DNA from: an uncultured Clostridia bacterium
GTDB lineage: Bacteria; Bacillota; Clostridia; Christensenellales; Borkfalkiaceae
Assembly: GCA_947630605.1 (NCBI GenBank)
Contig: CANRIO010000002.1
Location: 9 to 64,008, forward strand
DNA: 64,000 nt
Direction: 5' to 3'
Both the position numbers and the translations under genes were made by a program. The notes under the pieces are model-generated. The model saw only the letters and a program-made list of their open reading frames with translations. It had not been told where the DNA came from and searched no databases. Shown here in pieces: positions 349 to 60,325 of the stretch (the stretch's first letter is position 1; the number at the start of each line of letters is the position of its first letter).

Positions 349-800
349 ACCGCGTCATGCTGAGCCGATAAAGAGGGATGAAAACTGCGAGCCCATCCCC
401 GAAGCATCCCGAGGATGAAAACAGCAACATTGATAAACAGCAACCCGTTCCAAATTTCGTCATGCTGCCCCGACCGCGGCTTCTATTATTTATCGAAGGT
501 CGGCACGAAGTAGCGCAGTTGAAGTATCACCTTATTATTCGGACTTACGTTTTAGGAGATTCTTCGGAGAGTTGCTTTCACGGAAAGCCTTATTGGCGTG
601 GTCGGCTCAGAATGACGCTTACCGCCCCACATCATTCATTATTCCCTCATCTCGACGCCGTATATTATTCCCCCTCATCTCGACGCCGCGCCGCCCATCG
701 GGCGGCGCGGCGGAGGAGACCCCTCTCAAAGCACTTCGTTGGGTTTGTAGGGATCCTCTCGGCTTCGCCTCGGAATGAGGACTTTCCCCCTCCGTGCCTC
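349..800. repeat. Composite intergenic repeat cluster R1.
   Basis: An A-type long palindrome spans 354..616 (arms GTCATGCTGAGCCGATAA ... TCGGCTCAGAATGAC). A B-type element is nested inside it at 459..515. A C-type element follows at 645..780 (CCTCATCTCGACG ... CCTCGGAATGAGG). The same modules recur at nine other sites. Confidence 0.8.
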
Positions 801-804
801 ATCC

Positions 805-834
805 ACAAAAAAAGACCTTGCCCGAATGGCAAGG
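805..834 (-). terminator. Rho-independent terminator of the rpsF-ssb-rpsR operon.
   Basis: Stem CCTTGCC / GGCAAGG (816..822 and 828..834) with a 5-nt loop. On the minus strand it is followed by a U-run (plus-strand A-run 805..813). Confidence 0.7.
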
Positions 835-853
835 CCTTATGCAACAACAAATT

Positions 854-1183
854 TTATTCTGCTCTGAAGGGGATGAGAGCGGCGATGCGGGCGCGCTTGA
901 TGGCGGTCGCAAGTTCTCTCTGGTGCTTCGCGCAGGTGCCCGTCATGCGGCGGGGGAGGATCTTTCCGCCCTCGGCGACGAACTTCTTGAGCTTTGCCGT
1001 GTCCTTATAGTCGATCGTGGACTTTTCCTGGCAAAAGAGGCAGACCTTCTTGAAGTTCTGCTTTTTGAAGCCCTTTCTGGGAGCGCGGTCTCCCTTCTCC
1101 CGTTCTTCCTTGGGGGCGCCGGCCGCTGCGGGAGCGGCTGTGGCCTCGTCCTCTGTGACGGGAACAACAACTTCTTCTTCCAT
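854..1183 (-). CDS. rpsR: 30S ribosomal protein S18.
   Basis: 109 aa. The C-terminal ~75 aa match S18 ([50 protein letters not shown]). AAGGAG RBS. The rpsF-ssb-rpsR order is present. It carries an unusual ~35-aa acidic/Ala-Pro N-terminal extension. Confidence 0.95.
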
Positions 1184-5773: not shown

Positions 5774-5926
5774 CGCAATACCTCTCAGGTTGAGATTGAA
5801 AAAATGAAAGACGGGCACGGGCGTGCACCGCAAGTTTCATACGAAGCAATTATAATACACGCGCGCGAAAATTGCAAGCGTTTCTTGAAAATAAAACTTA
5901 CCAAAATTGGAAAAGAGTAAAATAGC

Positions 5927-6141
5927 GTCATTCTGCCCCGCCCGCACGTTCTGATCGCCGTCGAAGGGCGGCACGAGGGGCACCGCCCCGAAGTAGCCGA
6001 AAGTGTCAACCGCGTCATGCTGAGCCGACCAAAACATTACGCAGTCCATAGCGGCCCATCCTCGAAGCATCCCCTAATACGAAGTCCGCGTTTTCATCCT
6101 CGGGATCCTTCGACTTCGGCTTCGCCTCCGCTCAGGATGAC
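5927..6141. repeat. Repeat cluster R2, made of a B-type element and an A-type palindrome.
   Basis: B: GTCATTCTGCCCCGCCCGCACGTTCTGATCGCCGTCGAAGGGCGGCACGAGGGGCA..CCCCGAAGTAG at 5927..5996. A: GTCATGCTGAGCC ... GCTCAGGATGAC at 6014..6141. Confidence 0.8.
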
Positions 6142-6153
6142 ACGTTTACGCGG

Positions 6154-11966: not shown

Positions 11967-11989
11967 ATGTAGGGTGGGTTTGGCTTTTC

Positions 11990-12115
11990 TTGGCTCCCCC
12001 TTGAGGGGGAGCTGTCGAGCGGAGCGAGACAGAAGGGGTGTCGCTTTGGATGAACACCCCTTCCGTCACGCCTTTGGCGTGACACCCACCCCTCAAGGGG
12101 TGGGCAAGATCCCCA
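11990..12115. repeat. Repeat cluster R3, a string of D-type short hairpins.
   Basis: CTCCCCC-TTGA-GGGGGAG, CTGTC..GACAG, GGGGTGT..ACACCCC, GTCACGCC-TTTG-GCGTGAC and CCCACCCC-TCAA-GGGGTGGG. The GCTGTCACGC..GCGTGAC core recurs at about 19970, 41510 and 53150. Confidence 0.7.
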
Positions 12116-19929: not shown

Positions 19930-20056
19930 ATCCCCCCATACGGAGTCCATAAGGCTCCTCCTTGGGGAGGAGCTGTCACGCGGAACGTGACTGAGGTGGG
20001 GCCTCCAAATAACGTCATGCTGAGCCGCGCTCTGCGCGTGTCGAAGCATCACCACA
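19930..20056. repeat. Repeat cluster R4, made of a D-type hairpin and a truncated A-variant.
   Basis: GGCTCCTCCTTGGGGAGGAGCTGTCACGCGGAACGTGACTGAGGTGGGGCC, then GTCATGCTGAGCCGCGC..GTGTCGAAGCATCAC. The second part is the left half of the palindrome seen complete at 41669..41751. Confidence 0.7.
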
Positions 20057-34826: not shown

Positions 34827-34836
34827 CGTTACCCGC

Positions 34837-38200: not shown

Positions 38201-41200
38201 GATCTTCTACTTTGTCGGCACCGATCAAGAGTATACCCTTAAAATAACAGAGGGCGGCAGCGAGGTTGACTTCGTATTTACCATCGATGACGTGACCTCG
38301 AATGAAGATGAAAGTGCCTTAGTCGTTGAATTTGGTTACGACTGCTATTATGGCGAGGAATACTGCAGAGACTTCACGAATAGCTTTGACAATGTGACCC
38401 ATGAAGCCACGATCACTTTCTATAGCGACACGGAAGATTATTCTACAAGCCATAAGGTGACGATCACCATCAATGCAGAAGGCGTGACCGCTACAAAGAA
38501 ATTGGCCGCAATTACTCTCTATACAGGCGATATGCAATATGCCCTCATGATCAATACCGAGAATGAGTGGCGCCCCGCAACTTTCGTCATTGTAAAAGGA
38601 CCTGATGGTCGTCCTGTATATGTGAATGAAGACACGCCCGCATATCGGCAGGGCGGCGAATTGGAAGGCAGCGAGAACTACTATTGGGAAGTTACCGCCG
38701 AGGATGGCACGGTCTACACCATCACCATCACGGGTGCCAAGTGGGGCACAACCGCAGGCGAAGACGACTACTCCGAGGCGACGATCACAGTCACCTCTTC
38801 CAAGAAGGCGGGCGAGGACTTCCTCGACGGCAAGATGATCTTCAGCTTTGTGGGGAATGCCGCATTCTCCTTCGAGGGTGGAAATGTCACGCAACTTGAT
38901 TCGAATGGGGGGACGTCATACGGAAAGTATGTCATCGATGGAAACACCGTGACGGTTGGCGGCGAAGACAGCTATGTTTTCATCAAAAATGAGGACAACA
39001 CTCTTAGCTTACAGTATGATGCAGATACAACGGTTATCTTCTACTTCGTCGGCGATGAGTACGAGTATTCCCTTACCCTGACAGAGGGCAAAGAGGAAGT
39101 CACTCTCACATTTACGATCCAAGAGGTCTATCCGGATAGCACCGAATCGGGTATAGAATACTTTGATGCCTATTTGCTTCTCAGCTATGATGGCGGTGTA
39201 GATGACATCGTGATGGAATTGTCCTTTGACAATGGGTATGAGCTTTCAATACTGCACAATGTCGGTTTGGGCACCGCGGGTACAGTGGTTGAAAATTATA
39301 CGGTCACTGTAGACCTTGCCGCGAATGCGGCTACCAAAGAGCTTCTTTCGGTCACGATCTATTCGGACAGTTTGGAAAATGAACCTGAATATGGCATTTC
39401 TATTTATGCCGGTCCGTTCTATGCTGCTCTTTTCTACGTGAAAGGCGAATTTGATCTCGATCCTGTGGGAGACATGGTATATCGTTTGGGAGAGAGCGAG
39501 GACGAATACCGTTGGGAAGTTGAAGACACAGCCGAAGACGGCACGACGACCGTCTACACGATCAAGCTCGAAAATGTCGTTTGGGGCGGATTCGAAGCGG
39601 ACGACGATTTCACCGATGCAGTGCTGAAAGTCACCTCCGAGACGAAGCCGGGAACTGTCCAAGATTTCCTCGCAGGCAAGACCATTTATAGCTTCACCGA
39701 ACAGTTGGGCTATAAGTTCGAGAACGGGAAGGCCACCTCGCTTGCAACGGGTTCTTCTCCCGTGGACTACGCCATCACGTCGGAAACCACCGCGACGATC
39801 GGCGAGGACACCCTCACTTTGAACGATGATGGCAGCTTGACGATCGATGGGGGGGGGTGCTACTACTTCGTAGGCGTTGAGGTCACTCTCTCCGTAAAGG
39901 AAGGCGGACAGGACGTCAATGTCGTGTTCACGATCGAAAAGGTCGAAGTGCAAAATACGCCGGGAGTGGGCGATGAATACACCGTCACCTTTAGCGGCAC
40001 CACCAAATACGGCGAGAAAGAATGTGTCTCCATAGAAAATGGCTATGCCACCCAGCTTACCTTGACCTATGTCGAGGGTTCAAGCAAGTATACTGTGACC
40101 GTTGACCTCAGTGCAAATACCGCCACGAAGGCGCTCGCCGGGGTTTCCCTTCTCACCGAAGATCAGCTCTATCGCCTCGATATTAACACGGGTAGCGCAA
40201 GCCGCTATGCCGAGCTCTACAAGAAGAACGGAAGCAGTTACAACCTTGTTGCCGATCACATGATGAGAACAGGCAGGGATAATGGCACGTATTATTGGGA
40301 AGGCACGCAAACCGTCGGCGATACGATGACCACCTATACGATCGATATCGAGGGCGCAATATGGGGTAGTCCCGCTTCGCTTGATAAGTACTCCGGCGCA
40401 ACGATCACCGTCACGACGAAGGAGCAGACCTCCAAGACGCTCACCGCACAGGGAACAGACAAGGCGAACTACGAAGTCACCTTCCTTGTCGAAGATGGCG
40501 AAACCTCGATCACGAGGATCAAGAAGGACAGCGACGATCTCTATAATCCGAGATACATGACGCATCAGAACGGCGAAGTCCTTGAAAAGCTCGACAATAA
40601 TACATTCAAGTACTCCTATTCTTCGGGAACGACCTACTATGTAATCACGTTCGAGATCAAGGGCGAAGAAGTTTCCGATTGGACAATGACAGTGACGGTA
40701 GAGACGCTTAGCGCAAAGACTATCAATTGCAACATTAGCATAGATGGCGGTTCTTACGAGAGCGTCACAATTCTCTACGGTTCAGACGGCAAGCCGACGG
40801 GCATTGCATCCATCGAAATGTTGGTTTTGGGCGAAGGCTCAAAGACACTCACCGGCACTTCCAAAGTGGAAGACAAGGGCAACGGCAGCTATGTGATTAC
40901 CTTCACCACAGAGAACGACGGCGAGATCAAGCTCCTTGTCAAAGGCACCGGTCCCAACTTCACCGTTGAGCTTTATGAAGGAGACAGCGGCGACACGGGT
41001 GAAACCGGCGATACGTCTCCCAAGACCTACGAAGCAGAGACTGAGTTGGTAGTTAATGAAGGCCTTGACAACTTCACGATCACCAAGGTCGAGATCGATG
41101 CAATCAACGGCAAGCTCTATATTTGGGGTACAAAAGATGGAAGCCCGATGGAGCGTGAAGAATATGATATCACGGAGAGTCTCTATCCCCAAGATGATTA

Positions 41201-41476: not shown

Positions 41477-41880
41477 TCCCCCTCGGAAGGCTTCCCCCTT
41501 ACGAAGGGGGAAGCTGTCACGCTTGCGTGACTGATGAGGGCGGGTTACCGCGTCATTCTGCCCCGCCCGCACGTTCTGATCGTCGTCGAAGGGCGGCACG
41601 AGGGGCAAAGCCCCCGAAGTAGGCAAAGCCGAAGAATCCCCTCATACGAAGTCCGAGGCTTCTAATTCCGTCATGCTGAGCCGCGCGGCACGCGCGTGTC
41701 GAAGCATCACCGCATTATAATAATGTGATGTTTCGACAGGCTCAACATGACGATATTTAGAACGTTGCATCGTTTATCAAAGTCCGCGTTTTCATCCCCG
41801 GGATCCTTCGGTCGCTCCGCTCCCTCAGGATGACGCATTTGACCCTTGCCCTCTCCGTGGGGCGTCCCTTCTCCAAATTC
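41476..41880. repeat. Repeat cluster R7 (D, B, A-variant and A right half).
   Basis: D-type GGGGGAAGCTGTCACGCTTGCGTGACTGATGAGGG. B-type at 41549..41622. A complete variant palindrome GTCATGCTGAGCC..TGTCGAAGCATCAC..GTGATGTTTCGACA..GGCTCAACATGAC at 41669..41751. An A right half ending CTCAGGATGAC at about 41835. Confidence 0.8.
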
Positions 41881-47616: not shown

Positions 47617-47625
47617 GCTTTCGAA

Positions 47626-49119
47626 CTATTCCTCTTCGGACATGGTACCCTCGTCTTCCGTCTCCTCATCGAGCTGAACCCCTTCGCCGAGGGGCTCCAT
47701 GGCGCCCGCTTGCTTTTTCCGTTCATGATAAAGAAGGACCGCATAGACGACGGCGGCGGCAAAGAGCAGGGCGGCGAAGACGAGCATGACGATGGGGGCC
47801 GTATAGGTCATCGTCGGTCTCTGCGTCAACATATAGGTGTCGTCCTCCGGGTAAATGTAGTTGAGGAAGAGTTTCCCGAATACCATATTGGTGGCAAGTG
47901 CCGCGATAGCGCACACGAGGAGGACCCCCGCCACGAAGGGCACGTCGCTTCTTTGGGATCTGTCTTCCTCCGTGAGAAGTTTGCCCCACGAATTGAGGAG
48001 GAGGTAGGCGCAAAGAAGAATGATACCGATGCCGAAGACTTCGGCAAGCATCGCCGTAGTCAGCTGATCTGTCGGTGCGGCGGAGTATTCCGTGCCGATG
48101 AATCGCATCGCGGAGATCGACAGGAGGCTCATGATATTGACGCTGCCCTCGCTCCTCATCCCGATGCTTCCCTTCGCCGCAAAGGCGAGGATGATGACGG
48201 ACAGGATGGAGCAGAGGATGGCGAAGATGCCCTTTATTGCACTCATGCGGTTCATGGCCGACTTCCCCTTGGCGGCAAACTGCAGGCCACAGCCCGCCCC
48301 GAAGAAGATGCCGCCCAAGATGAGACCTGCAAGCGTCGCCCCATTCAAAGATGTGTGGACGGTTCTTTCCGTCCCCGTTACGTCCTGTGCATAGAGGGAG
48401 AGGAGGATGCACGCGCCGCAAAGAAAGACGCCGTATGCCGCCGCAGCGGGCGTGAAGAAGTCGGTGTTTCCCCTTGTCCCACGAACATGGCGCACGAAGC
48501 GAACGATCGCCACCGCCAGACATATGGGGATGGAGACAAAACAGCCCGCGCCGACGAGCGTCCCGAATGCGGCGTTGAAGTAGAGCGAAAAGGCGAGGAT
48601 GCCGGTGTCTCCACTAAAGGCCTTCAAAGCCACGGCGATATCGTCATAGGCGGAGGAGAAGAAATCGTAGACGGAGATGCTCGCCCTGCTCGTTTCACCC
48701 AATTCGACGGTCTTCGACGTGAGGCCGAGGAGGAACATGAAGATGAAGGCGATCGCCGCCGAGGCAAGAAGGACGATCCCTCCCGATAGCGACAGATAGA
48801 AGGAAGCCGATCTCGGAGATGCCGCCCTTTTGGGAGAGGGACTTGCGGCCGCGGTTTCTCTTTGGGCAGGCCGCGGGAAGGCGTCAGGGCTATGGCCGCA
48901 TGCGGGGCAAAAACGCGCCCCCTCGGGCAAGACCTCCCCACAACCGGGGCAGGTGCGCTTTCCGTCTATCCGGCTGCCGCATGCGAGGCAAAACTTCGCC
49001 CGCTCCTCGTTTGCCGTGCTGCAAATGGGACAGACGATCTTGCCGTCGATCCGCTTTCCGCACTCCAGGCAGTAGACCGCATTGTCGGGATTTTCCGTAG
49101 AGCAATATTTGCAAATCAT
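47626..49119 (-). CDS. Zinc-ribbon (triple CxxC pair) N-terminal domain fused to a polytopic membrane protein, hypothetical.
   Basis: The track ORF was trimmed to the ATG at 49119 (GAGGA RBS). MICKYCSTENPDNAVYCLECG...CPICST...CLACG...CPGCG...CPACG is followed by about 10 TM helices. The C-terminal tail is ETEDEGTMSEEE. Confidence 0.75.
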   Translation of the reverse strand: MICKYCSTENPDNAVYCLECGKRIDGKIVCPICSTANEERAKFCLACGSRIDGKRTCPGCGEVLPEGARFCPACGHSPDAFPRPAQRETAAASPSPKRAASPRSASFYLSLSGGIVLLASAAIAFIFMFLLGLTSKTVELGETSRASISVYDFFSSAYDDIAVALKAFSGDTGILAFSLYFNAAFGTLVGAGCFVSIPICLAVAIVRFVRHVRGTRGNTDFFTPAAAAYGVFLCGACILLSLYAQDVTGTERTVHTSLNGATLAGLILGGIFFGAGCGLQFAAKGKSAMNRMSAIKGIFAILCSILSVIILAFAAKGSIGMRSEGSVNIMSLLSISAMRFIGTEYSAAPTDQLTTAMLAEVFGIGIILLCAYLLLNSWGKLLTEEDRSQRSDVPFVAGVLLVCAIAALATNMVFGKLFLNYIYPEDDTYMLTQRPTMTYTAPIVMLVFAALLFAAAVVYAVLLYHERKKQAGAMEPLGEGVQLDEETEDEGTMSEEE

Positions 49120-49273: not shown

Positions 49274-49302
49274 AGAAAATGAGGTAAAAACCATTTATCG
49301 AA

Positions 49303-50514
49303 CTACTTCTCTTCGGACATGGTGCCATCGTTTTCCGTCTCGACCGCCGTTTTCTTCTCGGCAGGGCGGAACTTGCGCACCATCTTCACAATGGCGGGCG
49401 AGGAGAAGACGAGAACGCCGACGGCGACGACGATCGCGATGTCGACGAACACGAAGGAGTTATAGCCGAGGCTGTACGCCCATGCGCCCGCAGGGTCGCC
49501 CGTGAGGTCGGCGAAGGCGAACACGCCCGAGAGGACGTGGGAGACAAAGCGCAGCGCGCTCGCCGCGATCGCACCGAGGGCGAATTGGACCTGCGGGAGT
49601 TTGTCGAGCTTCTTCACATTTGCGAACAGTCCCGCAACGCCGATGCACGCAAATGCGATGGGATAGTCGAGGAGAAACTGCGCGGGGTGGATGAGCCAGG
49701 GGTCCTGCACGGCCTGCAGGATACCGTAGATCATGCCCGCGAAGATGCCCTTCTTCACGCCGAACATATAGGCGTAGATCATGAGGGGAAGCAGGGAGGC
49801 GATGGTGACCGAACCCCCTTGGGGGAGATGGAAGATACGGATGTAGGAGAGGGCGAAGCTCATGGCGATGCACACGGCCGCATAGGAGATGGATTTGGAA
49901 TCGAAGCCCGTGTTGTCCTTGCGCCCGAAGAAGAAGGCGAAGAAGGCGAGCAGGCCGCAGAGGAGGGCGGCGGAGACGTAGAGCAGGGCGTTATCGAGGG
50001 TCGTGATGCCGCTATCCTGCCCCGCGCCGTAGACGCCGAGGCAGACGAGCATGGCGATGAGTGCCGCTCCCGTCACGGAGAGGGAGACGATCTTCCCGAT
50101 GCGGAAGGCCTTTTCCCCGAACAAATAGCAGATATACGAGGCCGCCGCAGAGAGGATGACGCACGCGCCGAGCACGACGGCGGGGTAGAGGACGAGGTCG
50201 TAGATGACGCCCTCCTCGCGCATCTCCATGATCTCGAGGGAGAACATCGTGATGATGACGGCGAGCGCAAAGCCGACGGCAAGCGCGACGGCGACGGTGA
50301 GATAGCGCTTGATGTCATCCCGCTTCTTCCACATGACGAACGCGCCAATGAGGATGAGGAGGGCGACAAACGCCACAAAGCACCACAAAAAGACGGAGGA
50401 GAGCCCGCTCTTTGCAAACGACGTCCAAACGTCGGGATAGAGATAGCTCTCCACATCGCCCTCGGCATTCTGGATGGTGTCCGTATATGCCGCGAGCAGG
50501 GAAACTTGTAACAT
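49303..50514 (-). CDS. thiT: ECF-type thiamine transporter S-component (ThiT) fused to an extra ~190-aa N-terminal membrane domain.
   Basis: The track ORF was trimmed to the ATG at 50514 (AAGGAGG RBS). The C-terminal half matches my recollection of ThiT (LPQGGSV, AQFLLDYPIAFACIGVAGLF, WAYSLGYN). A TPP riboswitch lies upstream. The C-terminal tail is ETENDGTMSEEK. Confidence 0.8.
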   Translation of the reverse strand: MLQVSLLAAYTDTIQNAEGDVESYLYPDVWTSFAKSGLSSVFLWCFVAFVALLILIGAFVMWKKRDDIKRYLTVAVALAVGFALAVIITMFSLEIMEMREEGVIYDLVLYPAVVLGACVILSAAASYICYLFGEKAFRIGKIVSLSVTGAALIAMLVCLGVYGAGQDSGITTLDNALLYVSAALLCGLLAFFAFFFGRKDNTGFDSKSISYAAVCIAMSFALSYIRIFHLPQGGSVTIASLLPLMIYAYMFGVKKGIFAGMIYGILQAVQDPWLIHPAQFLLDYPIAFACIGVAGLFANVKKLDKLPQVQFALGAIAASALRFVSHVLSGVFAFADLTGDPAGAWAYSLGYNSFVFVDIAIVVAVGVLVFSSPAIVKMVRKFRPAEKKTAVETENDGTMSEEK

Positions 50515-50546
50515 AAAAAACCTCCTTTTATCCGCCTTCGGAGCAT

Positions 50547-50668
50547 AAAAAACGCCCGCGAAAATTGCGCAGGCGAAAAAAGTTCCGGATCCCGTTCTTT
50601 CGTGCAAGCATTGCCTTGCCCGATTCCAATGGTATCATCTCAGCCTTTCGGCACCCACGACGGATAAA
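50547..50668 (-). promoter_or_regulatory. TPP (THI-box) riboswitch with an intrinsic terminator as expression platform.
   Basis: The minus-strand RNA reads AUCCGUCGUGGGUGCCGAAAGGCUGAGAUGAUACCAUUGGAAUCGGGCAAGGCAAUGCUUGCACGAAAGAACGGGAU. This matches the THI-box pattern as I recall it from the E. coli thiM leader (GGGUGC..GGCUGAGA..AUACC..stem with AAUG loop..CG.A.GAA), closed by a P1 helix. It is followed by CGCCUGCG-CAAUUUU-CGCGGGCG-UUUUUU (50575..50547). Confidence 0.7.
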
Positions 50669-51340: not shown

Positions 51341-51364
51341 AGATCAAGGCTCCCCAGGTTACGC

Positions 51365-51585
51365 GTCATGCTGCCCCGCCCGCACGTTCTGATCGTTGTC
51401 GAAGGGCGGCACGAGGGGCAAAGCCCCGAAGTAGCTTGTCGAAGCATCCCCTAAAACGTAAGTCCGATACGGTCGCCGCGTTATGCTGCCCCGCCCGCAC
51501 GTTCTGATCGTTGTCGAAGGGCGGCACGAGGGGCAAAGCCCCGAAGTAGCTTGTCGAAGCATCCCCTGATACGAAGTCCAATGGT
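51365..51585. repeat. Repeat cluster R8: two tandem B-type elements.
   Basis: Near-identical copies GT(C/T)ATGCTGCCCCGCCCGCACGTTCTGATCGTTGTCGAAGGGCGGCACGAGGGGCAAAGCCCCGAAGTAG at 51365..51434 and 51480..51549. Each is followed by CTTGTCGAAGCATCCCCT..ACG.AAGTCC. Confidence 0.85.
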
Positions 51586-51657
51586 TGCCCCGCGTCAACC
51601 TTGACAAATATCGGACGCTATCTTATAATAATATAAAATCACAGTACGGAGAAAGAT

Positions 51658-52785
51658 ATGAGAAAGTTTTTCTTGGCGCTCTTTGCCTCCCTTCTTGCGG
51701 CGGGGCTCGCAGTTTCGGTTTCGGCATGCGGCGATGAAAATACCCACGAGCATACATACAACGAACAAAACGACTGCACGGTCTGCGGGGAGCATCTGAA
51801 CTTCACCGAGGGCCTTGAGTTCGAGCTCACGGAGAAAAATACCTACTCTGTCACGGGCATGGGTACCGCAGAAAACGTCACCGAGCTCGTGATTCCCGCT
51901 TACCACGATGGCAAGGCGGTGACGGAAATCGGGCAGTTTGCCTTCTCGGGAAATGCCGAAATCGAGAGCGTCGTCATTCCGAACGGCGTGACCGCGATCG
52001 ATCCTCACGCCTTTTTCGGGTGCAGTGCGCTTGCAAAGATCAGCCTTCCCGAAAGCGTGACCGCGATCGACGACGCGGCATTCGATGGCACCGCTTATTT
52101 CGAGAACAGGCAAAATTGGGATGGCGACGTGTTCTATATCGGGAAAGTGCTCATGAAGGCGAGAGACACCCTCTCGGGCGAGTACAAAATAAAGAAGGGA
52201 ACGCGGGTCATCGCACAGGGCGCGTTTATGGGGGTATATCTCGACAACAAATATTCGGGCTGTCCGAACCTGAAAGCCATCGTCATTCCCGAAAGTTTGG
52301 AGTTTATCGGGCCGAGCGTGTTTTCCTATTGCAATACGCTCGAAAAGGTCATGATCGACGACCTTGCGGCGTGGTGCAAAATAACCTTTGCCGACAATTA
52401 TTCCAACCCGCTCTATTATAGCGCGCACCTGTTTGTCAAAGGGAAAGAGATCACCGACCTTGTGATCCCAAACGGCGTATCGGAGATCAAGGCGCATGCG
52501 TTCGTTGATTGCAACGGGGTGAGAAGCGTGACCATCCCGAGCAGTGTGACCACGATCGGGGAGAGTGCGTTTGAATGGTTCGAAAGCCTCGAAAGTGTGA
52601 CCGTCGGCGCCAATGTGGCCTCGATCGGAGGGCACGCTTTTTACAGATGCGAAAACCTGAAAGACATCCGATACCAGGGCACTTCTGCCGCATGGGAGAA
52701 TATCCAAAAGGGCACCTCCTGGAGCCCCTACACAGGATGCACCGTGATTTGCTCCGACGGAACGCAGGTCATCCCCTCATCCTGA
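51658..52785 (+). CDS. Leucine-rich-repeat (BspA-like) surface lipoprotein.
   Basis: 375 aa. The signal peptide plus lipobox is MRKFFLALFASLLAAGLAVSVSAC. It carries repeated ~23-aa LRR units (IPxxVTxIGxxAFxxCxxLxxV). The gene looks lower in GC. Confidence 0.8.
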   Translation: MRKFFLALFASLLAAGLAVSVSACGDENTHEHTYNEQNDCTVCGEHLNFTEGLEFELTEKNTYSVTGMGTAENVTELVIPAYHDGKAVTEIGQFAFSGNAEIESVVIPNGVTAIDPHAFFGCSALAKISLPESVTAIDDAAFDGTAYFENRQNWDGDVFYIGKVLMKARDTLSGEYKIKKGTRVIAQGAFMGVYLDNKYSGCPNLKAIVIPESLEFIGPSVFSYCNTLEKVMIDDLAAWCKITFADNYSNPLYYSAHLFVKGKEITDLVIPNGVSEIKAHAFVDCNGVRSVTIPSSVTTIGESAFEWFESLESVTVGANVASIGGHAFYRCENLKDIRYQGTSAAWENIQKGTSWSPYTGCTVICSDGTQVIPSS

Positions 52786-52790
52786 CCCGC

Positions 52791-53190
52791 GTCATGCTGA
52801 GCCGATAAAGACATTACGCAGTCCATGTGAGAAATTCTCCGAAGCATCCCCTTATGCGAAGTCCGCGTTTTCATTAAGGGGATTCTTCGGAGAGTTGCTT
52901 CGTCGGAAATCCTTATACATGTTATCGGCTCAGAATGACGCCTACCCCTATCCACTAATCACTAACCACTAATCACTAACCACTAATCACTAACCACTAA
53001 TCACTAACCACTAATCACTTCTTCCTCATCTCGACGCGCCGAAGGCGCGGAGGAGACCCCCTCTCAATACACCTTGTTGGGTTTGTAGGGATTCCCTCGG
53101 CTTCGCCTCGGAATGAGGGCGTGGAGTAAGGCTTTCCCCATCCATGGGGGAAGCTGTCACGCTCTGCGTGACTGATGGGGGTTGAGCTTC
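52791..53190. repeat. Repeat cluster R9 (A palindrome, microsatellite, C element, D hairpin).
   Basis: A complete A-type palindrome spans 52791..52939, with arms GTCATGCTGAGCCGATAA / TTATCGGCTCAGAATGAC and inner arms CCGAAGCATCCCC / GGGGATTCTTCGG. A C-type element lies at 53024..53118 and a D-type hairpin at 53121..53187. Confidence 0.85.
52952..53019. repeat. Tandem heptanucleotide microsatellite (YCACTAA), about 9.7 units.
   Basis: CCACTAATCACTAA is repeated 4.9 times head to tail, embedded between the A and C modules of cluster R9. Confidence 0.9.
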
Positions 53191-53288
53191 CAATCGCCGA
53201 CCTTATTATTATATTCGGACATGACGCTTCTGCTAAGGATCAAAAAAGCCTTCCCCGATGAAAGGGAAGGCTTTATGCATAACATTAT

Positions 53289-55154
53289 TTACTTTTTCAA
53301 GCTCAAATAGATCATGAGGACGGCGATGTCGGCGGGGGAGACGCCCGAGATGCGTGCCGCCTGTCCGAAGTTCAGGGGGCGGATGCGGCCGAGCTTTTCC
53401 CTTGCCTCCAGCCGAAGTCCCGTAATTTTCTCGTAGTCGATGTCGGGCGGGAGGGGCTTTTCCTCCATCCGCTTCGCCTTCTCGATCTCCTCCCCGCTGC
53501 GTTTCAAGTACCCCGCATACTTCACTTCCGTCTCGCAGGCAAGAAGGACGTCCCGCGGCACATCTTCGAGGATATGGAAGTTCTCGCAGATCTCCTTTAA
53601 GGGAATACCGCGGCGGAGAAGGTCGGCAAAAGTCACGGAGGAAGTGAGGGGGGAGTAGCCGTATTTTTGCACGAGCGCGTCCGCGGTTTTTTGCTCTGCG
53701 CGTGCCTCGAGTGCGGACATGGTACCCTCCTTTTTGCTCTTCCGCGCAAGAAACCGCTCATACCGCTCCCTTGTCGCAAGGCCCGACTTATAGCCTATTT
53801 CCGTGAGCCGCTCGTCGGCGTTATCCTGCCGGAGGGAGAGGCGGAACTCCGCCCGCGAGGTCATCATGCGGTAGGGCTCCTCGGTGCCCTTCGTCACGAG
53901 GTCGTCGATGAGGACGCCGATATACGCCTGGTCCCGCCGAAGCACGAGCGGGGGAAGGCCGCGGAGCTTCAGGGATGCATTCAGCCCCGCCATGAGGCCC
54001 TGCGCGGCGGCCTCTTCGTAGCCGCTCGTCCCGTTGATCTGTCCCGCAAGATACAGCCCCTCCACCCGCTTGTATTCGAGGGTGGGCAGAAGGTCGAGGG
54101 AGTCGATGCAGTCGTACTCGATGGCGTAGGCATAGCGCATGATCTCGCACTTTTCCAGCCCCTTTACCGAGCGGTAGACCTCCTTTTGCAGGTCGTGGGG
54201 GAGGGAGGTGGAGAGCCCCTGCACATACACCTCCGTCGTGTCCGCCCCCTCGGGTTCTAAAAAGAGCTGATGCCGCTCCTTGTCCGAAAACCGCACCACC
54301 TTCGTCTCGATGGAGGGGCAATAGCGCGGCCCCGCCGAGGAGATCTGCCCGTTGTAGAGGGGGGCACGGTCGAGATTTTTGAGAATGATCTCGTGCGTCT
54401 TTTGGTTGGTGTAGGCGAGGTGGCAGGGAGTTTGGCTCTCGGGCAGCTTCTCATTCATGAAGGAGAAGGGGAAGACGTCCTCCCCCGGCTGGACGGGGAG
54501 GGCGGCAAAGTCCACCGTGCGTCCGTCGAGGCGGGCGGGCGTGCCCGTCTTGAACCTCCTTATGCGAAGGCCGAGGTCTGCAAGATTTTGGGTGAGAAGG
54601 GTGGCGCGTTCGAAGCCGTTGGGGCCCGCATCGCGGACATGGGTGCCAGTAATTGTGCGTGCACCGAGATAGACGCCCGTTGCGACGACGACCGCGCGGC
54701 AGGAAAATATTCCCCCGTAGGAAGTGCGAACGCCCGTGACTTTTCCGTTTTCCGTTAAAATTTCGGCCGCTTCGCCTTGCACGATGCGAAGGTTTTCGGT
54801 ATGTTCGAAGACCCGCTTCATCTCGGTGTGATAGCGGTTTTTATCCACCTGTGTGCGGAGGGACTGCACCGCCGCGCCCTTGCCCTCGTTGAGCATGCGG
54901 TACTGCAGGGCGCACCTGTCGGCGCACAGCCCCATCTCCCCGCCGAGGGCGTCGATCTCACGCACCAAATGCCCCTTCGCGGTGCCGCCGACGGAGGGGT
55001 TGCAGGGCATGAAGCCGATACTGTCGAGATTGAGGGTCAGAACGACGGTCTTTTGTCCCGTCCGCGCAAGGGCGAGTGCGGCCTCCGCACCCGCATGTCC
55101 CGCGCCGATGACAACGGCGTCGCATGCCCCTTCGAAAAAAGTCTGCATATCCAA
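53289..55154 (-). CDS. mnmG: tRNA uridine 5-carboxymethylaminomethyl modification enzyme MnmG (GidA).
   Basis: 621 aa, with DAVVIGAGHAGAEAALA, PCNPSVGGTAKGHLVREIDALGG and a C-terminal GVSPADI. Confidence 0.97.
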   Translation of the reverse strand: MDMQTFFEGACDAVVIGAGHAGAEAALALARTGQKTVVLTLNLDSIGFMPCNPSVGGTAKGHLVREIDALGGEMGLCADRCALQYRMLNEGKGAAVQSLRTQVDKNRYHTEMKRVFEHTENLRIVQGEAAEILTENGKVTGVRTSYGGIFSCRAVVVATGVYLGARTITGTHVRDAGPNGFERATLLTQNLADLGLRIRRFKTGTPARLDGRTVDFAALPVQPGEDVFPFSFMNEKLPESQTPCHLAYTNQKTHEIILKNLDRAPLYNGQISSAGPRYCPSIETKVVRFSDKERHQLFLEPEGADTTEVYVQGLSTSLPHDLQKEVYRSVKGLEKCEIMRYAYAIEYDCIDSLDLLPTLEYKRVEGLYLAGQINGTSGYEEAAAQGLMAGLNASLKLRGLPPLVLRRDQAYIGVLIDDLVTKGTEEPYRMMTSRAEFRLSLRQDNADERLTEIGYKSGLATRERYERFLARKSKKEGTMSALEARAEQKTADALVQKYGYSPLTSSVTFADLLRRGIPLKEICENFHILEDVPRDVLLACETEVKYAGYLKRSGEEIEKAKRMEEKPLPPDIDYEKITGLRLEAREKLGRIRPLNFGQAARISGVSPADIAVLMIYLSLKK

Positions 55155-55198
55155 AAAGAATGCCCCGCCTGCCCGTTGCGGGCGGACAGGGCGGGTTT

Positions 55199-56548
55199 TT
55201 ATTGTTTGAGAACGACGCTCCGGATGTCGTTCACTTCCTTCAAGATGGTGTCGTTCACGCGCATGAGCTCCTCCACCTTATCCCGCGAATAGATGACCGT
55301 CGCATGGTCCCTTCCGCCCATCTCTTTTCCGATGGAGACGAGGGGAAGGGTGAGCATGTCGCACATGAGGTAGGTGCAGATCTGCCTTGCCCGCACGAGT
55401 TCCTGCCGCTTGCTCTTGCCGCAGAGGTCCTCTTTTTTCACCTTGAAGTAGCCGCACGTCGCGCGGATGATCGTCTCCGCCGTGATGTCCTCGGGCTCTG
55501 CCGCCGTGATGGATTCCTGCAGGGCGGTCGCCGCAAGTTTCAAAGAGATGGGCTCCTCGTGGAGCTTGCTCGCAAAGATGACGGTGTTGAGCCTTCCCTC
55601 CAAGGTGCGCACATTGTTGTCGGAATTCTGCACGAGGAAGCCGAGCACGTCGTCGGGGATGATGTACTTCTTCTCGAGGGCTTTGCGCTTTAAGATCGCG
55701 ATCTTCGTCTCGATGTCGGGCGGTTGGATGTCGGCGATGAGCCCCCCTTCGAAGCGGGTGCGAAGGCGTTCCTCAAGCGTCGTGAGTTCCTTTGCGGGGC
55801 AGTCGGAGGAGATGACGATCTGCTTGTTCTGCGAGAAGAGTTCGTTGAAGGTATTGAAAAATTCCTCCTGCACGCCGCGCTTGCCCGCCCAGCTCTGGAT
55901 GTCGTCGATAAGCAGAACGTCCACGTTGCGGTAGCGGTTGCGAAAGCGCGCATTCGCCTCCCTCCCTTCGCCCGACTTGGAGTAGACGATGCTGTCGACG
56001 TATTCGTTCAGGAAGCGTTCGCTCGTCGTGTAGAGGACCTTGAGGGAGGGCTTCTTCTCGGCAAGTTCATTGGCGATGGCCTGCAGAAGGTGCGTCTTTC
56101 CGAGGCCGCTCCCGCCGTAGATGTAGAGGGGGTTGAAGTTCTCCCCGGGAGCAGAAGCGACAGACCTTGCCGCCGCATAGACGAGTTTATTGGAGGCACC
56201 CACGACGAAGGAGTCGAAGGTGAACCGCTTGTCCGTCTGGACAAAAACTTCCTCCATGGCGTCGGGCATCTCGCTCATGGCGTAAGTATCGCTCCCGTCC
56301 ACGACGATGACGATATCCGAGAGCCCGATGTTTGCGGCAACGGCCGCCTCGCGGAGCTGGGGAAGATGGCTCTTCGTGATGGTGTTCGCCCCCGTCTCGG
56401 TGAGAGCCTTCAAGACCAATTTTTTATTGACGACGTCCACGGGGACAAGTCCCTCGATGAAGGTATCGAAGGAGACGGGGTTGATGAGGGGGCGCGCCCG
56501 CTCTTTGACTTTTTCCCACAGAACTTCAAATTGTGTCTTTTCGGCCAT
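55199..56548 (-). CDS. dnaA: Chromosomal replication initiator protein DnaA.
   Basis: 449 aa. Contains Walker A GGSGLGKTHLL, box VII, and a domain IV ending GGRDHATVIYSRDKV. Confidence 0.97.
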   Translation of the reverse strand: MAEKTQFEVLWEKVKERARPLINPVSFDTFIEGLVPVDVVNKKLVLKALTETGANTITKSHLPQLREAAVAANIGLSDIVIVVDGSDTYAMSEMPDAMEEVFVQTDKRFTFDSFVVGASNKLVYAAARSVASAPGENFNPLYIYGGSGLGKTHLLQAIANELAEKKPSLKVLYTTSERFLNEYVDSIVYSKSGEGREANARFRNRYRNVDVLLIDDIQSWAGKRGVQEEFFNTFNELFSQNKQIVISSDCPAKELTTLEERLRTRFEGGLIADIQPPDIETKIAILKRKALEKKYIIPDDVLGFLVQNSDNNVRTLEGRLNTVIFASKLHEEPISLKLAATALQESITAAEPEDITAETIIRATCGYFKVKKEDLCGKSKRQELVRARQICTYLMCDMLTLPLVSIGKEMGGRDHATVIYSRDKVEELMRVNDTILKEVNDIRSVVLKQ

Positions 56549-56692
56549 ATTTTTCCCCTCAAACGCTTTGTGTTTTTCGCAAAATTTGCTATAATATCCT
56601 TGCGGACGGAAGGGCTCCTTCCGTGCCCGCCTCTCAGTGTGTATAACTTATTATAATACAAAATCCTCCGAAAAGAAAGTGTTTTTGCCGAA

Positions 56693-57778
56693 ATGGTCGT
56701 AAAAAAATTGACGCTGAAAAATTTCAGAAATTATGAGGATGAGACCTTCGCCTTCGACGACGGCCTCAATATCCTCACGGGCAGAAACGCACAGGGCAAG
56801 ACCAACTGCGTCGAGGCGGTGTTCTACCTCTGCACGGGGGCGTCTCTCCGCATCCGCCACGATCGGCAGCTCATCCGGAGGGGGGAAGAGCGGGCACAGA
56901 TTTCCGCGGAAGCTCTGACCCGCTTCGGGCGCGTCCTTTTGGAGGCGGTCATCTTTGAAAACAAGCGGGAGCTCTATCTCAACGGGAACAAGGTCACCCG
57001 CTCGGTGGACTTCATCGGGAACATGAAGAGCGTCTTCTTCTCCCCGGGGGAGTTGCGCCTCATACAGGACGGCCCCGACGAGCGGAGAAGATTTCTCAAC
57101 CTCTCCATCTCGCAGACCTCCAAGGAGTACGCACAGGCCCTCCTTCGGTTCGGCCGCATCCTCGAACAGCGGAACGACCTTCTCAAGAACAGGGACGCCT
57201 CCCTCATCCTCGACACCCTCCCCGTCTGGGACGAACAGCTCTCCCTCTGCGCCGCCCGCATCATCAAAAAGCGGCAGGAATATCTGCAAAAGCTATCCGT
57301 CATCGCCGCCGATGCGCACGCCTGTCTCACGGACGGGGCGGAACAGCTCGCCCTCTCCTTGGACAAGGAATACAAGGGGGAGGAGGGGGACATCGCCAAA
57401 AAACTTCAGCGGGAACTTTCCGCCTGCTATGAGCGGGATATCCGCCTCGGGTTCACCTCCGTGGGGCCGCATCGCGACGATATCAAAATTTCCATCGGCG
57501 GCGCGGACGCCCGCAGTTTCTCCTCGCAGGGACAGGCGCGCACGGCCGCCCTTGCCATGAAGCTCGCCGAAGTGGAGATCTTCCGCACCCTCTCGGGGGA
57601 GCCGCCCGTCCTCATCCTCGACGACGTGATGAGCGAGCTGGACCTTCCGAGGAGGAAGAAACTTCTCTCCCGCGTGAAGGACGTTCAGTGCATCCTGACC
57701 TGCACGCACGCAGAGCGAGTCCTCTACGGCGCAGAGTGTAAAAAAATCAAGATAAGCGAAGGAAAAATTATACAATGA
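56693..57778 (+). CDS. recF: DNA replication and repair protein RecF.
   Basis: 361 aa, with LKNFRNYED, GRNAQGKTNCVEA and the signature SQGQARTAALAMKLAE...LILDDVMSELD. Confidence 0.95.
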   Translation: MVVKKLTLKNFRNYEDETFAFDDGLNILTGRNAQGKTNCVEAVFYLCTGASLRIRHDRQLIRRGEERAQISAEALTRFGRVLLEAVIFENKRELYLNGNKVTRSVDFIGNMKSVFFSPGELRLIQDGPDERRRFLNLSISQTSKEYAQALLRFGRILEQRNDLLKNRDASLILDTLPVWDEQLSLCAARIIKKRQEYLQKLSVIAADAHACLTDGAEQLALSLDKEYKGEEGDIAKKLQRELSACYERDIRLGFTSVGPHRDDIKISIGGADARSFSSQGQARTAALAMKLAEVEIFRTLSGEPPVLILDDVMSELDLPRRKKLLSRVKDVQCILTCTHAERVLYGAECKKIKISEGKIIQ

Positions 57779-58680
57779 GAGCAGATCTGCACATGCATTC
57801 CATATGCTCCGACGGGGCGCTTCCCCCCGAGAAGCTTGCCCGCCGTGCAAAAGAGGAGGGGCTTTTCCTCTTTTCCCTCACCGACCACGACACCCTTGCG
57901 GGGCAGGAGGAGGCCGCGGCCGCCGCAAAGAAGGCCGGTGTGCACTTTGTCCGCGGGGTGGAGATCTCCGCCTATCTCGGGGCGACGAAGGTGCACGTCC
58001 TCGGCTATGGCTGCAGGGCGGGGGAGGCGTACGAAAAGTTCTTAAAAGACCGTGTCGACGGGGCGAGAAAGCGCGCCGAAGAGATCGTCGAAAGGGCGAA
58101 CGCGCACTTCGGGTTCCATGTCACGCTCGACGACGTCGAGGCATACCATGCCCGGAAGGAGACCCCACTGCACACCATGCAGATCGTCCATACCTATGCC
58201 GAAATTTTGCACATGAACGTCGCTCAGCTTTACCGCGAGGCATTCGGCCCCTACAAGCCCGCCTATTCGGACATCTGCCGCCCCACGCCGCAGGATGCGG
58301 TGCGCATCGTGCATGAGATGGGCGGCCTTGCCGTGCTCGCCCACCCCGCACAGATCCTCGTTTTGCCGCAAGAAGTGTCCGAAAAGTTCCACACCTTTAC
58401 AAGGTCACAGCGCGAGTGGGCGAAGATCCGCTATGCGGGGGCACGCGACGCCCTCATGGAGGAGCTCGTATGCTGCGGGCTCGACGGCATAGAATGCTAC
58501 CATTCGACGCATACTGAAAGGGAGTCGAAGGAGTTTTCATCCTTTGCGTCGCAGCACGGCCTCTTCATAACGGGCGGCTCGGACTTCCATGCGGACGGCG
58601 AGGGCCGGCGCATCGGCTATCCCCCGTTCGACGCCGAAGAGGTGGAAGAGAGGCTCCTTTCGCTCGACGGGAGCGTATGA
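57775..58680 (+). CDS. PHP-domain metal-dependent phosphoesterase (TrpH/YciV-like).
   Basis: 301 aa, with MRADLHMHSICSDG, SLTDHDT and VLAHP...GGSDFH. The start overlaps the recF stop. Confidence 0.85.
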   Translation: MRADLHMHSICSDGALPPEKLARRAKEEGLFLFSLTDHDTLAGQEEAAAAAKKAGVHFVRGVEISAYLGATKVHVLGYGCRAGEAYEKFLKDRVDGARKRAEEIVERANAHFGFHVTLDDVEAYHARKETPLHTMQIVHTYAEILHMNVAQLYREAFGPYKPAYSDICRPTPQDAVRIVHEMGGLAVLAHPAQILVLPQEVSEKFHTFTRSQREWAKIRYAGARDALMEELVCCGLDGIECYHSTHTERESKEFSSFASQHGLFITGGSDFHADGEGRRIGYPPFDAEEVEERLLSLDGSV

Positions 58681-59897
58681 AACACATGAAAACCATCGCG
58701 CTCCTCCTTGCGGGGAGCTTTTTTTTGGGCGGTTGCGCGGGCGGAACGGTCAGGCGCGGCGTCAAGGTGAACGGCATCGACGTCGGGGGGATGAACCTTC
58801 CCGCGGCGGCGGAGAGGGTGCGGGAAACGCTTACAAAGGACCCCCTTGTCATCTCCTGTCCGAACGGGGAATTTACCGCCACGCTCGACTACTCCGACGA
58901 CCTCGAAGAGCAGCTGAAAAATGCCAAACGTAACGCCTCTCTCTCGGTCATGGTACGGCGCGAATACGTCAACATGGAGGAAGAGCTCGCCGCGCTCTGC
59001 ATGGAGAATGCCCGCGAGGGCCGCCCCGCCGAGCTCTCCTTTTCCGCCGAGGGATTCTCCTACACCCCCGAGGAAAACGGCCTCTCCTGCGACTATGAGA
59101 AACTGCTCCGCGACGCCTCGGAGGCCCTGAAAAACGGCGGCACGCGGGTGAAGCTTAGCTGTAGCGAAGTGCCTCCCGCCGTCACCGTGGAGAGTTTGAA
59201 GGAGAGGACGCAGTTGCTCTCGAGCTTTTCCACCTCCTTCGACGAAAAAAACGCGCCCCGCACGCACAACATCGCCCTCGCGGGAGGGCGGATCGCGGGT
59301 ACGACGCTCTTGCCCGGGGAGGTGTTCTCCTTCAATGAAAAGGTGGGAAAACGCACAAAGGAGAACGGCTTCGAGGAGGCCGCCGTCATCTTTGAGGGGG
59401 AATTCGTTCAGGGCGTGGGCGGCGGCGTCTGCCAGGCCTCGACCACCCTCTTCGGCGCGGCCCTCAGGGCGGGGCTTTGCATCACCGAGAGCCATCCCCA
59501 TTCCCTCTCCGTCGGCTATGTCTCCCCCTCCGAGGACGCCATGGTCTCCGAATTCAGCGACTTAAAGTTCCGCAACCCCTATCTCTATCCCGTGTATCTG
59601 CTCGCAGAGACGGAAGAGGGGAGGGTGACCTTCTCCGTCTTCGGCATGCCGGACGGGAAGCGCCATCGGGTGGAGGGCCGCATCCTCTCCGAGATCGAAC
59701 CCCCGCCTGCCGAGGTGGTGGAGGGGACGGCGAACAGGACGCTGAGAAAGGAGAAAAAGGGAATAAGGAGCGAGAGCTTCCTCGTCGTCTCGGAGGGGGA
59801 GCGGGAGCTCTCCCGCACGCTGATCAGAAGGGATACTTATGCCGCCGTAAGAGGGATCGAGGAGCGGATGCCCGCTCCTCTTGTGCCGTTTGAATAA
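58677..59897 (+). CDS. VanW-family lipoprotein.
   Basis: 406 aa. The lipobox is LLLAGSFFLGGC. The VanW core is LLPGEVFSFNEKVGKRTKENGFEEA...GGGVCQASTTLF...HSLSVGYV. Confidence 0.85.
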   Translation: MKHMKTIALLLAGSFFLGGCAGGTVRRGVKVNGIDVGGMNLPAAAERVRETLTKDPLVISCPNGEFTATLDYSDDLEEQLKNAKRNASLSVMVRREYVNMEEELAALCMENAREGRPAELSFSAEGFSYTPEENGLSCDYEKLLRDASEALKNGGTRVKLSCSEVPPAVTVESLKERTQLLSSFSTSFDEKNAPRTHNIALAGGRIAGTTLLPGEVFSFNEKVGKRTKENGFEEAAVIFEGEFVQGVGGGVCQASTTLFGAALRAGLCITESHPHSLSVGYVSPSEDAMVSEFSDLKFRNPYLYPVYLLAETEEGRVTFSVFGMPDGKRHRVEGRILSEIEPPPAEVVEGTANRTLRKEKKGIRSESFLVVSEGERELSRTLIRRDTYAAVRGIEERMPAPLVPFE

Positions 59898-59939
59898 AGC
59901 GAATCGCGTATAGGCTACGAAATACTGTGTCGTGATCGC

Positions 59940-60325
59940 GTCATGCTGAGCCGACCAATAGGGATGAAAACCGCGAGCCTATCTCCGAAGCATCCCCCCA
60001 TACGAAGTCCGATGTATCAACCGCGTCATGAATTTTTCTCCTCATCTCGACGACACGATAGTGGCGCACGAGCCGAAGGCGAAGTACGCATCTATCGCGG
60101 CGGAGGAGACCCCTACAGACCCATGAAGCCTTATCGTTTACGTAGGGATTCCCTCGGCTTCGCCTACTTCGCGCCAAGGCGCTCGTGCCGCGCTTAGTAG
60201 GCAATAGTGCGCGCGGGGCGGAATGAGGACTCCGTGGGACGCTCTTCCGCTATTGCCCCCTCCGTGGGAGGGCACGGGACGCATGCCCCCTCCGTGGGAG
60301 GGGGGTAGGGGGGTGGGGCGCACTC
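59940..60325. repeat. Repeat cluster R10 (A left half, C element with an insertion, two E-type G-rich units).
   Basis: GTCATGCTGAGCCGACCAATAGGGATGAAAACC... Then CCTCATCTCGACG...GGGATTCCCTCGGCTTCGCC...GGAATGAGG, then CCCCCTCCGTGGGAGGG twice, the second continuing as GGGGGGTAGGGGGGTGGGGCG. Confidence 0.8.

Follow-up and report, generated by a model that had tools for sequence, protein, structure and literature searches.

CGTC-tagged hairpin repeats, probably of the Ssn-related class, cluster around surface-protein genes on a gut Clostridia chromosome

Repetitive extragenic palindromic (REP) elements of the CGTC-tagged superfamily consist of an unpaired CGTC (or TGTC, CCTC), an 8-9-bp stem that opens with A-T and T-A pairs, a 4-5-nt loop and a CCA tail; they are intergenic, occur mostly as inverted dimers and include Neisseria dRS3 and Rickettsia RPE-4 and RPE-6, with atypical loops in some families (PMC3733652). 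Ssn proteins (cd10448) are GIY-YIG nucleases that cut single-stranded DNA (ssDNA) at specific sites and bind one strand only of hairpins, named NTS in Neisseria and Ssn-related motifs (SRMs) in general (PMC11893778). They cut a few nucleotides 5' of the tag and do not bind RNA; the three bases that precede the stem and the C that follows it are critical, and the loop is dispensable (PMC11893778). SRMs lie near 71% of ssn genes, the arrangement NTS-ssnA-NTS resembles an insertion sequence (IS), and in N. meningitidis, where NTS cluster near surface-protein genes, DNA that carries NTS transforms less efficiently in the presence of the system (PMC11893778). Here we analyze the intergenic repeats of a 64-kb stretch of DNA (hereafter the window; positions 9 to 64,008 of contig CANRIO010000002.1, assembly GCA_947630605.1) from an uncultured Clostridia bacterium (Borkfalkiaceae). 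Three of the five repeat modules previously distinguished in it (A, B and C) are variants of one tagged hairpin unit, and we consider it likely that they form a single class of strand-specific DNA hairpin repeat, i.e., CGTC-tagged REPs of the Ssn-related type.

Self-BLAST and a repeat search of the window both recover repeats at ten sites (349-780, 5920-6147, 11988-12109, 20013-20058, 32688-32871, 34833-35076, 41487-41840, 51357-51597, 52787-53181 and 59937-60317), and the coordinates that the initial annotation gave for modules A to E hold to within a few bases. The repeat DNA amounts to about 2.4 kb, somewhat below the 2.8 kb first proposed. Approximately 25 complete and 5 truncated units are spread over nine intergenic sites, while the tenth site contains module D only. 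All motifs are strongly overrepresented: the head GTCATKCTGMSCCG occurs 17 times (0.15 expected), the gapped A-arm pattern 7 times (0 expected), the tail extension ATACGMAGTCC 14 times (1.4 expected), and the D and E cores 3 times each (0.01 and 0.03 expected, respectively). The gene map bears out the earlier statement that all copies are intergenic, with one exception, a truncated head at the end of the gene encoding a BspA-like leucine-rich-repeat protein (BspA-LRR; 52774-52785).

Although A, B and C had been described as three families, an alignment of the units shows a common plan: the tag leads into a 5-bp stem that has AT as its first bases, next come a GA-rich internal loop and an interior that varies, and GA, the complementary stem and a C-first tail complete the unit. 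The tag is CGTC, CCTC or (once) TGTC on all 25 complete units, with CGTT in one. Stem heads read ATGCT, ATTCT, ATCCT, ATTCC or A-TCTC, and the stem pairs are ATGCT/AGCAT (G-type), ATTCT/AGAAT (T-type) and ATCCT/AGGAT; the tail is CCC(C), CAC or CTC, in which the first C is invariant and the third base is never A. The shortest unit (32782-32809, minus strand) has the sequence CGTC-ATTCT-GA-GC-GAA-GC-GA-AGAAT-CCC. In such minimal units the 5-bp stem is followed by tandem G.A and 2-3 G-C pairs, giving 9-10 stacked pairs closed by a 3-nt GAA loop, and their GCGAAGC core is said to be an exceptionally stable DNA mini-hairpin (work attributed to Hirao et al.). The loop grows to between 9 and ~105 nt in A, B and expanded C units; in A and B an insert of 20-100 nt stands in place of the mini-hairpin. 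The left arms of A are minimal units with a 40-45-nt interior, B is a minimal-unit shell enclosing a 65-75-nt cassette, and C is the CCTC-tagged version of the unit. B-like cassettes are found in four different shells, namely CGTC-ATGCT, CGTC-ATTCT, CGTC-ACCCT (related loci L008 and L031) and CCTC-ATTCC (60145-60228).

The structures originally described as A palindromes are inverted heterodimers: a G-type unit on the one strand is combined with a T- or C-type unit on the other, with both tags at the outer ends, and in all loci examined G-type and T/C-type units have opposite orientations. Each arm carries a stem with its own compensating changes, so that the arms would fold individually instead of as one long palindrome. 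There are eight inverted dimers in the window, four of A (353-617, 6013-6142, 32693-32809, 52790-52940), three of C (673-780, 53024-53118, 60040-60228) and an inner pair at 41669-41752, and the cluster at 41551-41835 may add an outer inverted pair. Complementarity between the head and tail triplets is retained across subfamilies: in the window plus 28 related loci, 84 of 86 typed pairs match (GCT-AGC, 52; TCT-AGA, 21; CCT-AGG, 11), leaving 2 cross-type pairs. Compensatory exchange is also seen at an orthologous position, since the unit at 59939 has an ATGCT/AGCAT stem in the window and ATCCT/AGGAT in locus L020, a contig of the rabbit-gut metagenome-assembled genome (MAG) 'uncultured Clostridia bacterium Lapin-024__bin45'. 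The B variant of L008 and L031 has the stem ACCCT/AGGGT.

In other organisms, ssn genes have hairpins identical or nearly identical to these units on their flanks. The 26-mer GTCATTCTGAGCGAAGCGAAGAATCC, part of the shortest unit (32783-32808), is present without change in at least 120 metagenome loci, five of which (590 kb in all) encode Ssn at distances of 12, 51, 61, 268 and 658 bp from the 26-mer; in L066, L091 and L153 the gene is no more than 61 bp away. In a Patescibacteria-like member of the Ssn-bearing set (L164), loop-expanded T-type and C-type units occupy opposite sides of the gene, as in the heterodimers of the window. Among 185,579 species representatives, the gapped A-arm pattern is restricted to two rabbit-gut Clostridia MAGs and four Acidobacteriota loci. 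One of the Acidobacteriota loci (L017) has an ORF of ~95 aa with a GIY-YIG domain (Pfam PF01541, E = 6e-13) adjoining A-type units, of which those upstream are direct and the one right after the stop codon is inverted, while in another (L032) a decayed GIY-YIG gene lies between two inverted hairpins; two more homologs (L033, L039) have the same layout with the A-type head and tail. In plasmid records, tblastn recovered GIY-YIG homologs from Neisseria, Azospirillum, Novosphingobium, Sinorhizobium, Planktothrix, Spirosoma and Aeromonas, each flanked by its own lineage-specific CGTC, TGTC or CCTC hairpins, which within 30-kb windows are almost confined to the side of the gene. The pairing of such hairpins with GIY-YIG genes has been described before (PMC3733652, PMC11893778). 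A Clostridia MAG (L182) encodes an Ssn homolog flanked by GTC-tagged hairpins, indicating that the system exists in Clostridia. The Clostridia-specific A-arm pattern had no matches in JGI metagenomes, nor did the A-arm pattern in viral contigs, and the minimal unit matched one viral contig, which was without Ssn.

Window positions 52315-60627 are 92-96% identical to L020, and a second relative (L183) aligns at 80-87% identity. Orthologous intergenic regions of these genomes differ in their sets of units while the flanking genes align, which indicates fast turnover. In related MAGs the units also form 86-bp tandem arrays, and the spacers of dimers contain D hairpins and inverted B units. In all three genomes a CCTC head includes the stop codon of the BspA-LRR gene: in the window a truncated CCTC-ATCCT-GA head supplies the last codons and the stop (CCC TCA TCC TGA; 52774-52785, plus strand). 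In L183 (~2192) this stop belongs to a complete unit, and the L020 counterpart is at ~455-490. Truncated heads accumulate on the 5' side of complete units ('head stutter') in the window (60024-60030), in L012 (~2120-2145), in L020, in a Planktothrix locus (L053) and in a soil metagenome contig (L146), which hints that breakage or insertion takes place within the unit's 5' half.

The window comes from a housekeeping region of a Clostridia-like chromosome, and its conserved genes include rpsR-ssb, cca, prmC-prfA, thrC, trpS, lon, engB, rpsB-tsf, pyrH-frr-uppS-cdsA-dxr-rseP, mnmG-dnaA, recF and rplS. It also encodes three lipoproteins (a 2018-aa InlB-repeat protein, the BspA-LRR protein and a 240-aa protein) and a 1238-aa membrane-anchored protein. 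CGTC units are found on 5 of the 8 flanks of these four surface/lipoprotein genes and at 4 of the 38 other junctions (Fisher p = 0.004), with units on both sides of the 2018-aa and BspA-LRR genes. The units are also strand-polar: all single (unpaired) units and G-type arms are on the plus strand (10/10 positions, p = 0.002; single-unit sites taken alone, 5/5, p = 0.06), and this polarity is unchanged in L020 and L183 despite their different units. Two sites (350-780 and 5920-6147) are antisense to both adjoining genes. The GC skew of the window shows no clear origin.

Given the identity with ssn-flanking units elsewhere and the published biochemistry, the units would act as ssDNA hairpins that are recognized and nicked by Ssn. 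When single-stranded, a hairpin would be bound by a single-domain GIY-YIG nuclease of ~95 aa (Ssn, cd10448), as in other bacteria; the enzyme would read the tag together with the stem and the C behind it, and would nick a few nucleotides 5' of the tag. That the loop is dispensable for Ssn would account for the other modules that fill loops and dimer spacers. By analogy with the Neisseria NTS, Ssn-dependent cutting of incoming or replicative ssDNA would modulate recombination around the surface-protein genes. An Ssn may be encoded by this genome, where it would cut or spread the units and so produce such an effect. A more elaborate two-tier version, which we regard as doubtful, has a constant nuclease-recognized shell (tag, stem, C) whose loops and spacers are landing pads where cassettes form a second layer; the resulting mosaics would bracket surface-protein genes as strand-polar boundaries of ssDNA cleavage and recombination that drive or limit the exchange of these genes, with a divergent Ssn or none.

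Several observations weigh against assigning the units to the Ssn-related class. The covariation reflects few subfamily-level compensatory changes rather than many independent events, and single units fold no better than shuffled sequences under nearest-neighbour DNA parameters (z between +0.45 and -1.8), as would be expected because the parameters ignore the tandem G.A pairs and the GAA mini-hairpin. Most loops are far longer than the 4-5 nt described for the CGTC superfamily. The degenerate SRM motif, HGTCWYN(0-2)YYVSBRHN(0-5)WNVSBRGN(0-2)RNCYNB, has no match in the window; among 10 control loci, this pattern recovers the hairpins beside ssn in just 3 (Neisseria, Azospirillum and Aeromonas) and misses those of Sinorhizobium, Spirosoma, Novosphingobium, Planktothrix and Acidobacteriota, and it is therefore narrower than the real class. 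Searches by regular expression, tblastn and an 8-sequence hidden Markov model detected no Ssn/GIY-YIG gene in the window, in 28 loci of the two related MAGs or in L183-L189 (~250 kb of relatives), a result that fits a gene with one to a few copies per genome. We know of no organism in which Ssn has been tied by experiment to the spread of repeats.

The missing gene is also what would be expected if the units were orphan relics of an Ssn/SRM system whose nuclease has been lost, the repeats persisting and being reshuffled by replication slippage, gene conversion and inter-copy recombination. Truncated heads and partial units are numerous, tandem duplications occur (e.g., 34836/35005 and 51364/51479), and 19% of genomes with more than 200 SRMs have no Ssn homolog (PMC11893778). 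We nevertheless think that relics are improbable, since stem complementarity is kept in nearly all units and orthologous sites differ completely in content between genomes that are 92-96% identical, which indicates recent activity; with ssn usually at one to a few copies per genome, missing it in ~10% of the genome is expected. It is very unlikely that the repeats are mainly RNA elements, i.e., 3'-untranslated-region stabilizers, terminators or small RNAs transcribed with their neighbours. A co-oriented gene lies upstream at 7 of 9 sites, many REPs have been suggested to be transcribed (PMC3733652), and module D has a weak resemblance to whalefall-1 RNA; against these points, the hairpins are not followed by T-runs, two sites are antisense to both neighbours as noted above, an Rfam scan of the window at gathering thresholds gave no match, the minimal GCGAAGC core is reportedly a mini-hairpin of DNA, and RNA is not bound by Ssn (PMC11893778).

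Mobilization by a transposase has to be considered as well, because hairpins, inverted dimers and mosaics without target duplications resemble REPs and their doublets (REPINs), which are mobilized by REP-associated tyrosine transposases (RAYTs; Y1 HUH enzymes), or PATE-like derivatives of IS200/IS605. The initial annotation had called the repeats REP-like or like bacterial interspersed mosaic elements (BIMEs), and this description fits: they are short tagged hairpins that occur as singles, inverted dimers, tandem arrays and mosaics lacking target-site duplications. The uniform polarity of single units and G-type arms is of the kind seen in ssDNA transposition, and GAAGTAG is found at the end of the B cassette. 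The conserved tag, however, is CGTC/CCTC and not GTAG, and the sole GTAG, in the B cassette, is 3' of its hairpin and thus on the wrong side. The 64-kb gene map contains no transposase, Y1/RAYT or GIY-YIG gene, in line with the transposase-free window noted earlier; CGTC repeats never flank RAYT genes in the 2013 survey (PMC3733652), and it is GIY-YIG genes that are instead flanked by identical unit sequence. We regard mobilization by RAYT or IS200/IS605 enzymes as very unlikely. A further possibility is that the repeats are miniature inverted-repeat elements derived from a DDE-type IS, for which the A and C dimers speak with their imperfect 15-20-nt terminal inverted repeats and spans of 120-260 bp; we find it extremely improbable. 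There is no consistent direct duplication at the ends of the four A dimers (the TACCG at 353-617 is not repeated at the other three), and no IS with these ends is present in ~280 kb. Self-folding arms also occur singly and in tandem, and the different, internally compensated stems of left and right arms favor arm hairpins over one long palindrome. Assignment to the CGTC-tagged, Ssn-related class remains the reading that we prefer.

Modules D and E are GC-rich hairpins that are unrelated to the CGTC units but share their sites. D consists of double hairpins, which in related MAGs occupy the spacers between the arms of CGTC dimers. Its layout of two adjacent hairpins, the second with a nearly identical cacgCuUGcgug core, resembles Rfam whalefall-1 (RF01762); membership was rejected because the scores obtained at a permissive threshold (21.3-21.4 bits) are below the gathering threshold of 37 and the linkers differ. 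A hammerhead-like reading of CUGAUGAG in D and CUGAG in A was likewise discarded, as core positions misfit and there is no Rfam ribozyme match, and integron attC sites and CRISPR were dismissed on the basis of differing core motifs and the absence of variable spacers. D double hairpins on the plus strand are located at 19952-20002, 41487-41545 (DNA fold -18.1 kcal/mol, z = -5.2; weakly whalefall-1-like) and 53128-53181, and two mutually inverted D-like GC-rich double hairpins, not of CGTC type, make up the site at 11988-12109. Module E (CCCCCTCCGTGGGAGGGGGGTAGGGGGGTGGG) combines a hairpin with four G-tracts that could form a G-quadruplex, and it is situated just upstream of the rpsB and rplS promoters. 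Upstream of rpsB (32839-32871, plus strand) the hairpin CCCCCTCC/GGAGGGGG is followed by the G-tracts. The E copy previously placed at 60248, upstream of rplS, resolves into a half copy (60256-60272) and a full copy (60286-60317), both on the plus strand and kept in L020.

The CGTC sites vary in how the units are combined. The A dimer at 353-617 has a G-type left arm with a 41-nt loop (353-410, +) and a T-type right arm (556-617, -), and its spacer contains a B-type unit with a CGTC-ATGCT head, the B loop cassette and an AGTAT tail (458-531, +), in agreement with the earlier observation of a B element inside an A palindrome. Next to it, 645-780 comprises a truncated CCTC head (645-660) and a C dimer with a complete CCTC left unit (673-725, +) and a CCTC right unit (750-780, -). 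A B-type unit with a T-type head and no tail (5926-5998, +) is followed by the A dimer at 6013-6142, in which the left arm is G-type (6013-6073, +) and the right arm is TGTC-tagged and C-type (6102-6142, -; core GGCGAAGCC). The composite site at 19938-20052 (+) joins a tail-extension piece (19938-19948), the D double hairpin mentioned above and a short G-type CGTC unit (20013-20052). In the A dimer at 32693-32809 a G-type left arm (32693-32753, +) is paired with the minimal T-type unit (32782-32809, -; CGTCATTCTGAGCGAAGCGAAGAATCCC). The region 34836-35076 (+), a 169-bp duplication upstream of the 2018-aa lipoprotein gene, holds a G-type unit (34836-34893), a truncated B (34941-34993) and a second G-type unit with a tail extension (35005-35062).

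Nested dimers at 41551-41835 include a T-type B unit (41551-41640, +), a short G-type unit (41669-41710, +), its inverted partner (41725-41752, -) and a C-type right unit (41800-41835, -). Two tandem B units with a 115-bp period (51364-51450 and 51479-51565, +) are upstream of the BspA-LRR gene. Past the end of that gene, an A dimer (52790-52940; G-type left, 52790-52850, +; T-type right, 52879-52940, -) and a C dimer (53024-53118; CCTC left, 53024-53062, +; CCTC-ATTCC right, 53088-53118, -) are separated by ~5 copies of a 14-nt tandem repeat, CTAACCACTAATCA (52948-53019, +). The last site begins with a G-type unit with a tail extension (59939-59996) and the truncated head CGTCATG (60024-60030), both on the plus strand, and continues with a C dimer with expanded loops (60040-60228; left, 60040-60113, +; right, 60145-60228, -), the right loop of which contains the B-like cassette.

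Other features of the window and of its relatives were also recorded. The 2018-aa lipoprotein gene, which encodes InlB-B repeats, has three 258-bp tandem coding repeats (35632-36405) and a diverged internal duplication of ~860 bp (36399-37258 vs. 39663-40526). Two adjacent minus-strand genes, encoding a zinc-ribbon protein and a ThiT-like transporter, have identical 44-nt 3' ends (47621-47664 and 49298-49341) that encode ...E(T)E(D/N)(E/D)GTMSEE(E/K)*. Upstream of the transporter gene (49303-50607) is an element resembling a thiamine pyrophosphate riboswitch (50580-50668, minus strand) with a score of 34.5 bits, below the threshold of 54.3. The dnaA gene (-) adjoins mnmG (-) and diverges from recF (+), with no dnaN between them (53289-57778). 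In L183 (10381-12407) and L184, rplS is separated from the gene after it by a 2-kb insertion that encodes a multi-pass membrane protein of 558 aa; the insertion is missing from the window (60858-60904) and is not flanked by CGTC units. The 11-mer ACCATGTCCGA occurs 10 times in the window (0.06 expected), at 301, 19614, 20956 and 46448 on the plus strand and at 9976, 17438, 25984, 29605, 47646 and 49323 on the minus strand. These copies are both genic and intergenic and have no conserved flanks, and eleven further copies lie in 215 kb of relatives' loci. The 11-mer may be under selection, perhaps as an oligomer similar to an uptake signal. The window has no tRNA or tmRNA genes.

The proposed assignment ties the repeats to a defined enzyme class: they would be substrates of site-specific ssDNA nucleases, which are under development as tools, and each new pair of hairpin and nuclease is a potential new specificity. 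The host range of the class is widened to gut Clostridia, as well as to Acidobacteriota and Patescibacteria, and a large cross-phylum subclass built on ATTCT-GA-GCGAAGC-GA-AGAAT escapes the published search pattern. The bracketing of surface-protein genes mirrors Neisseria and hints at a general control of recombination at host-interaction genes. For annotation, it is relevant that the units create spurious ORFs and break assemblies.

The repeats had been reported not to belong to a named family. At the class level they do: the units fit the CGTC-tagged REP superfamily (PMC3733652), including its Ssn-related motifs (PMC11893778), while the variant and its nested organization in Clostridia are absent from the published accounts that we found; a literal search of paper texts for the sequences returned unrelated primer matches only. 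With the superfamily the units share the tag variants, the A-T/T-A start of the stem, a short tail with C first, inverted (often hetero-) dimers, an intergenic location and occasional clusters. They differ in that tandem G.A interrupts the stem, the tail is CCC rather than CCA and is followed by a conserved ATACGAAGTCC extension, loops and spacers nest other modules, and the host belongs to the Clostridia, whereas the five phyla of the 2013 survey exclude Firmicutes and Acidobacteria (PMC3733652). The likeness to the NTS/SRM-SsnA system (PMC11893778) consists of the tag-stem-C layout, of identical or near-identical units flanking ssn genes in other organisms, of dimers with tags outermost that correspond to NTS-ssnA-NTS minus the gene, and of clusters around surface-protein genes, as for NTS in Neisseria; in contrast to NTS and SRMs, the window units depart from the degenerate SRM pattern, have longer loops, form modular mosaics and lack an ssn gene in the window and ~250 kb of relatives. 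Tagged hairpins, inverted doublets, mosaic clusters, rapid turnover and a presumed single-copy ssDNA enzyme also recall the REP/REPIN/BIME systems with RAYT of Enterobacteria and Pseudomonas, in which the tag is GTAG instead of CGTC and the enzyme is an HUH Y1 transposase instead of a GIY-YIG nuclease. New in the present variant are the G.A-interrupted stem, the very long, cassette-bearing loops, the nested heterodimers and the gut Clostridia host.

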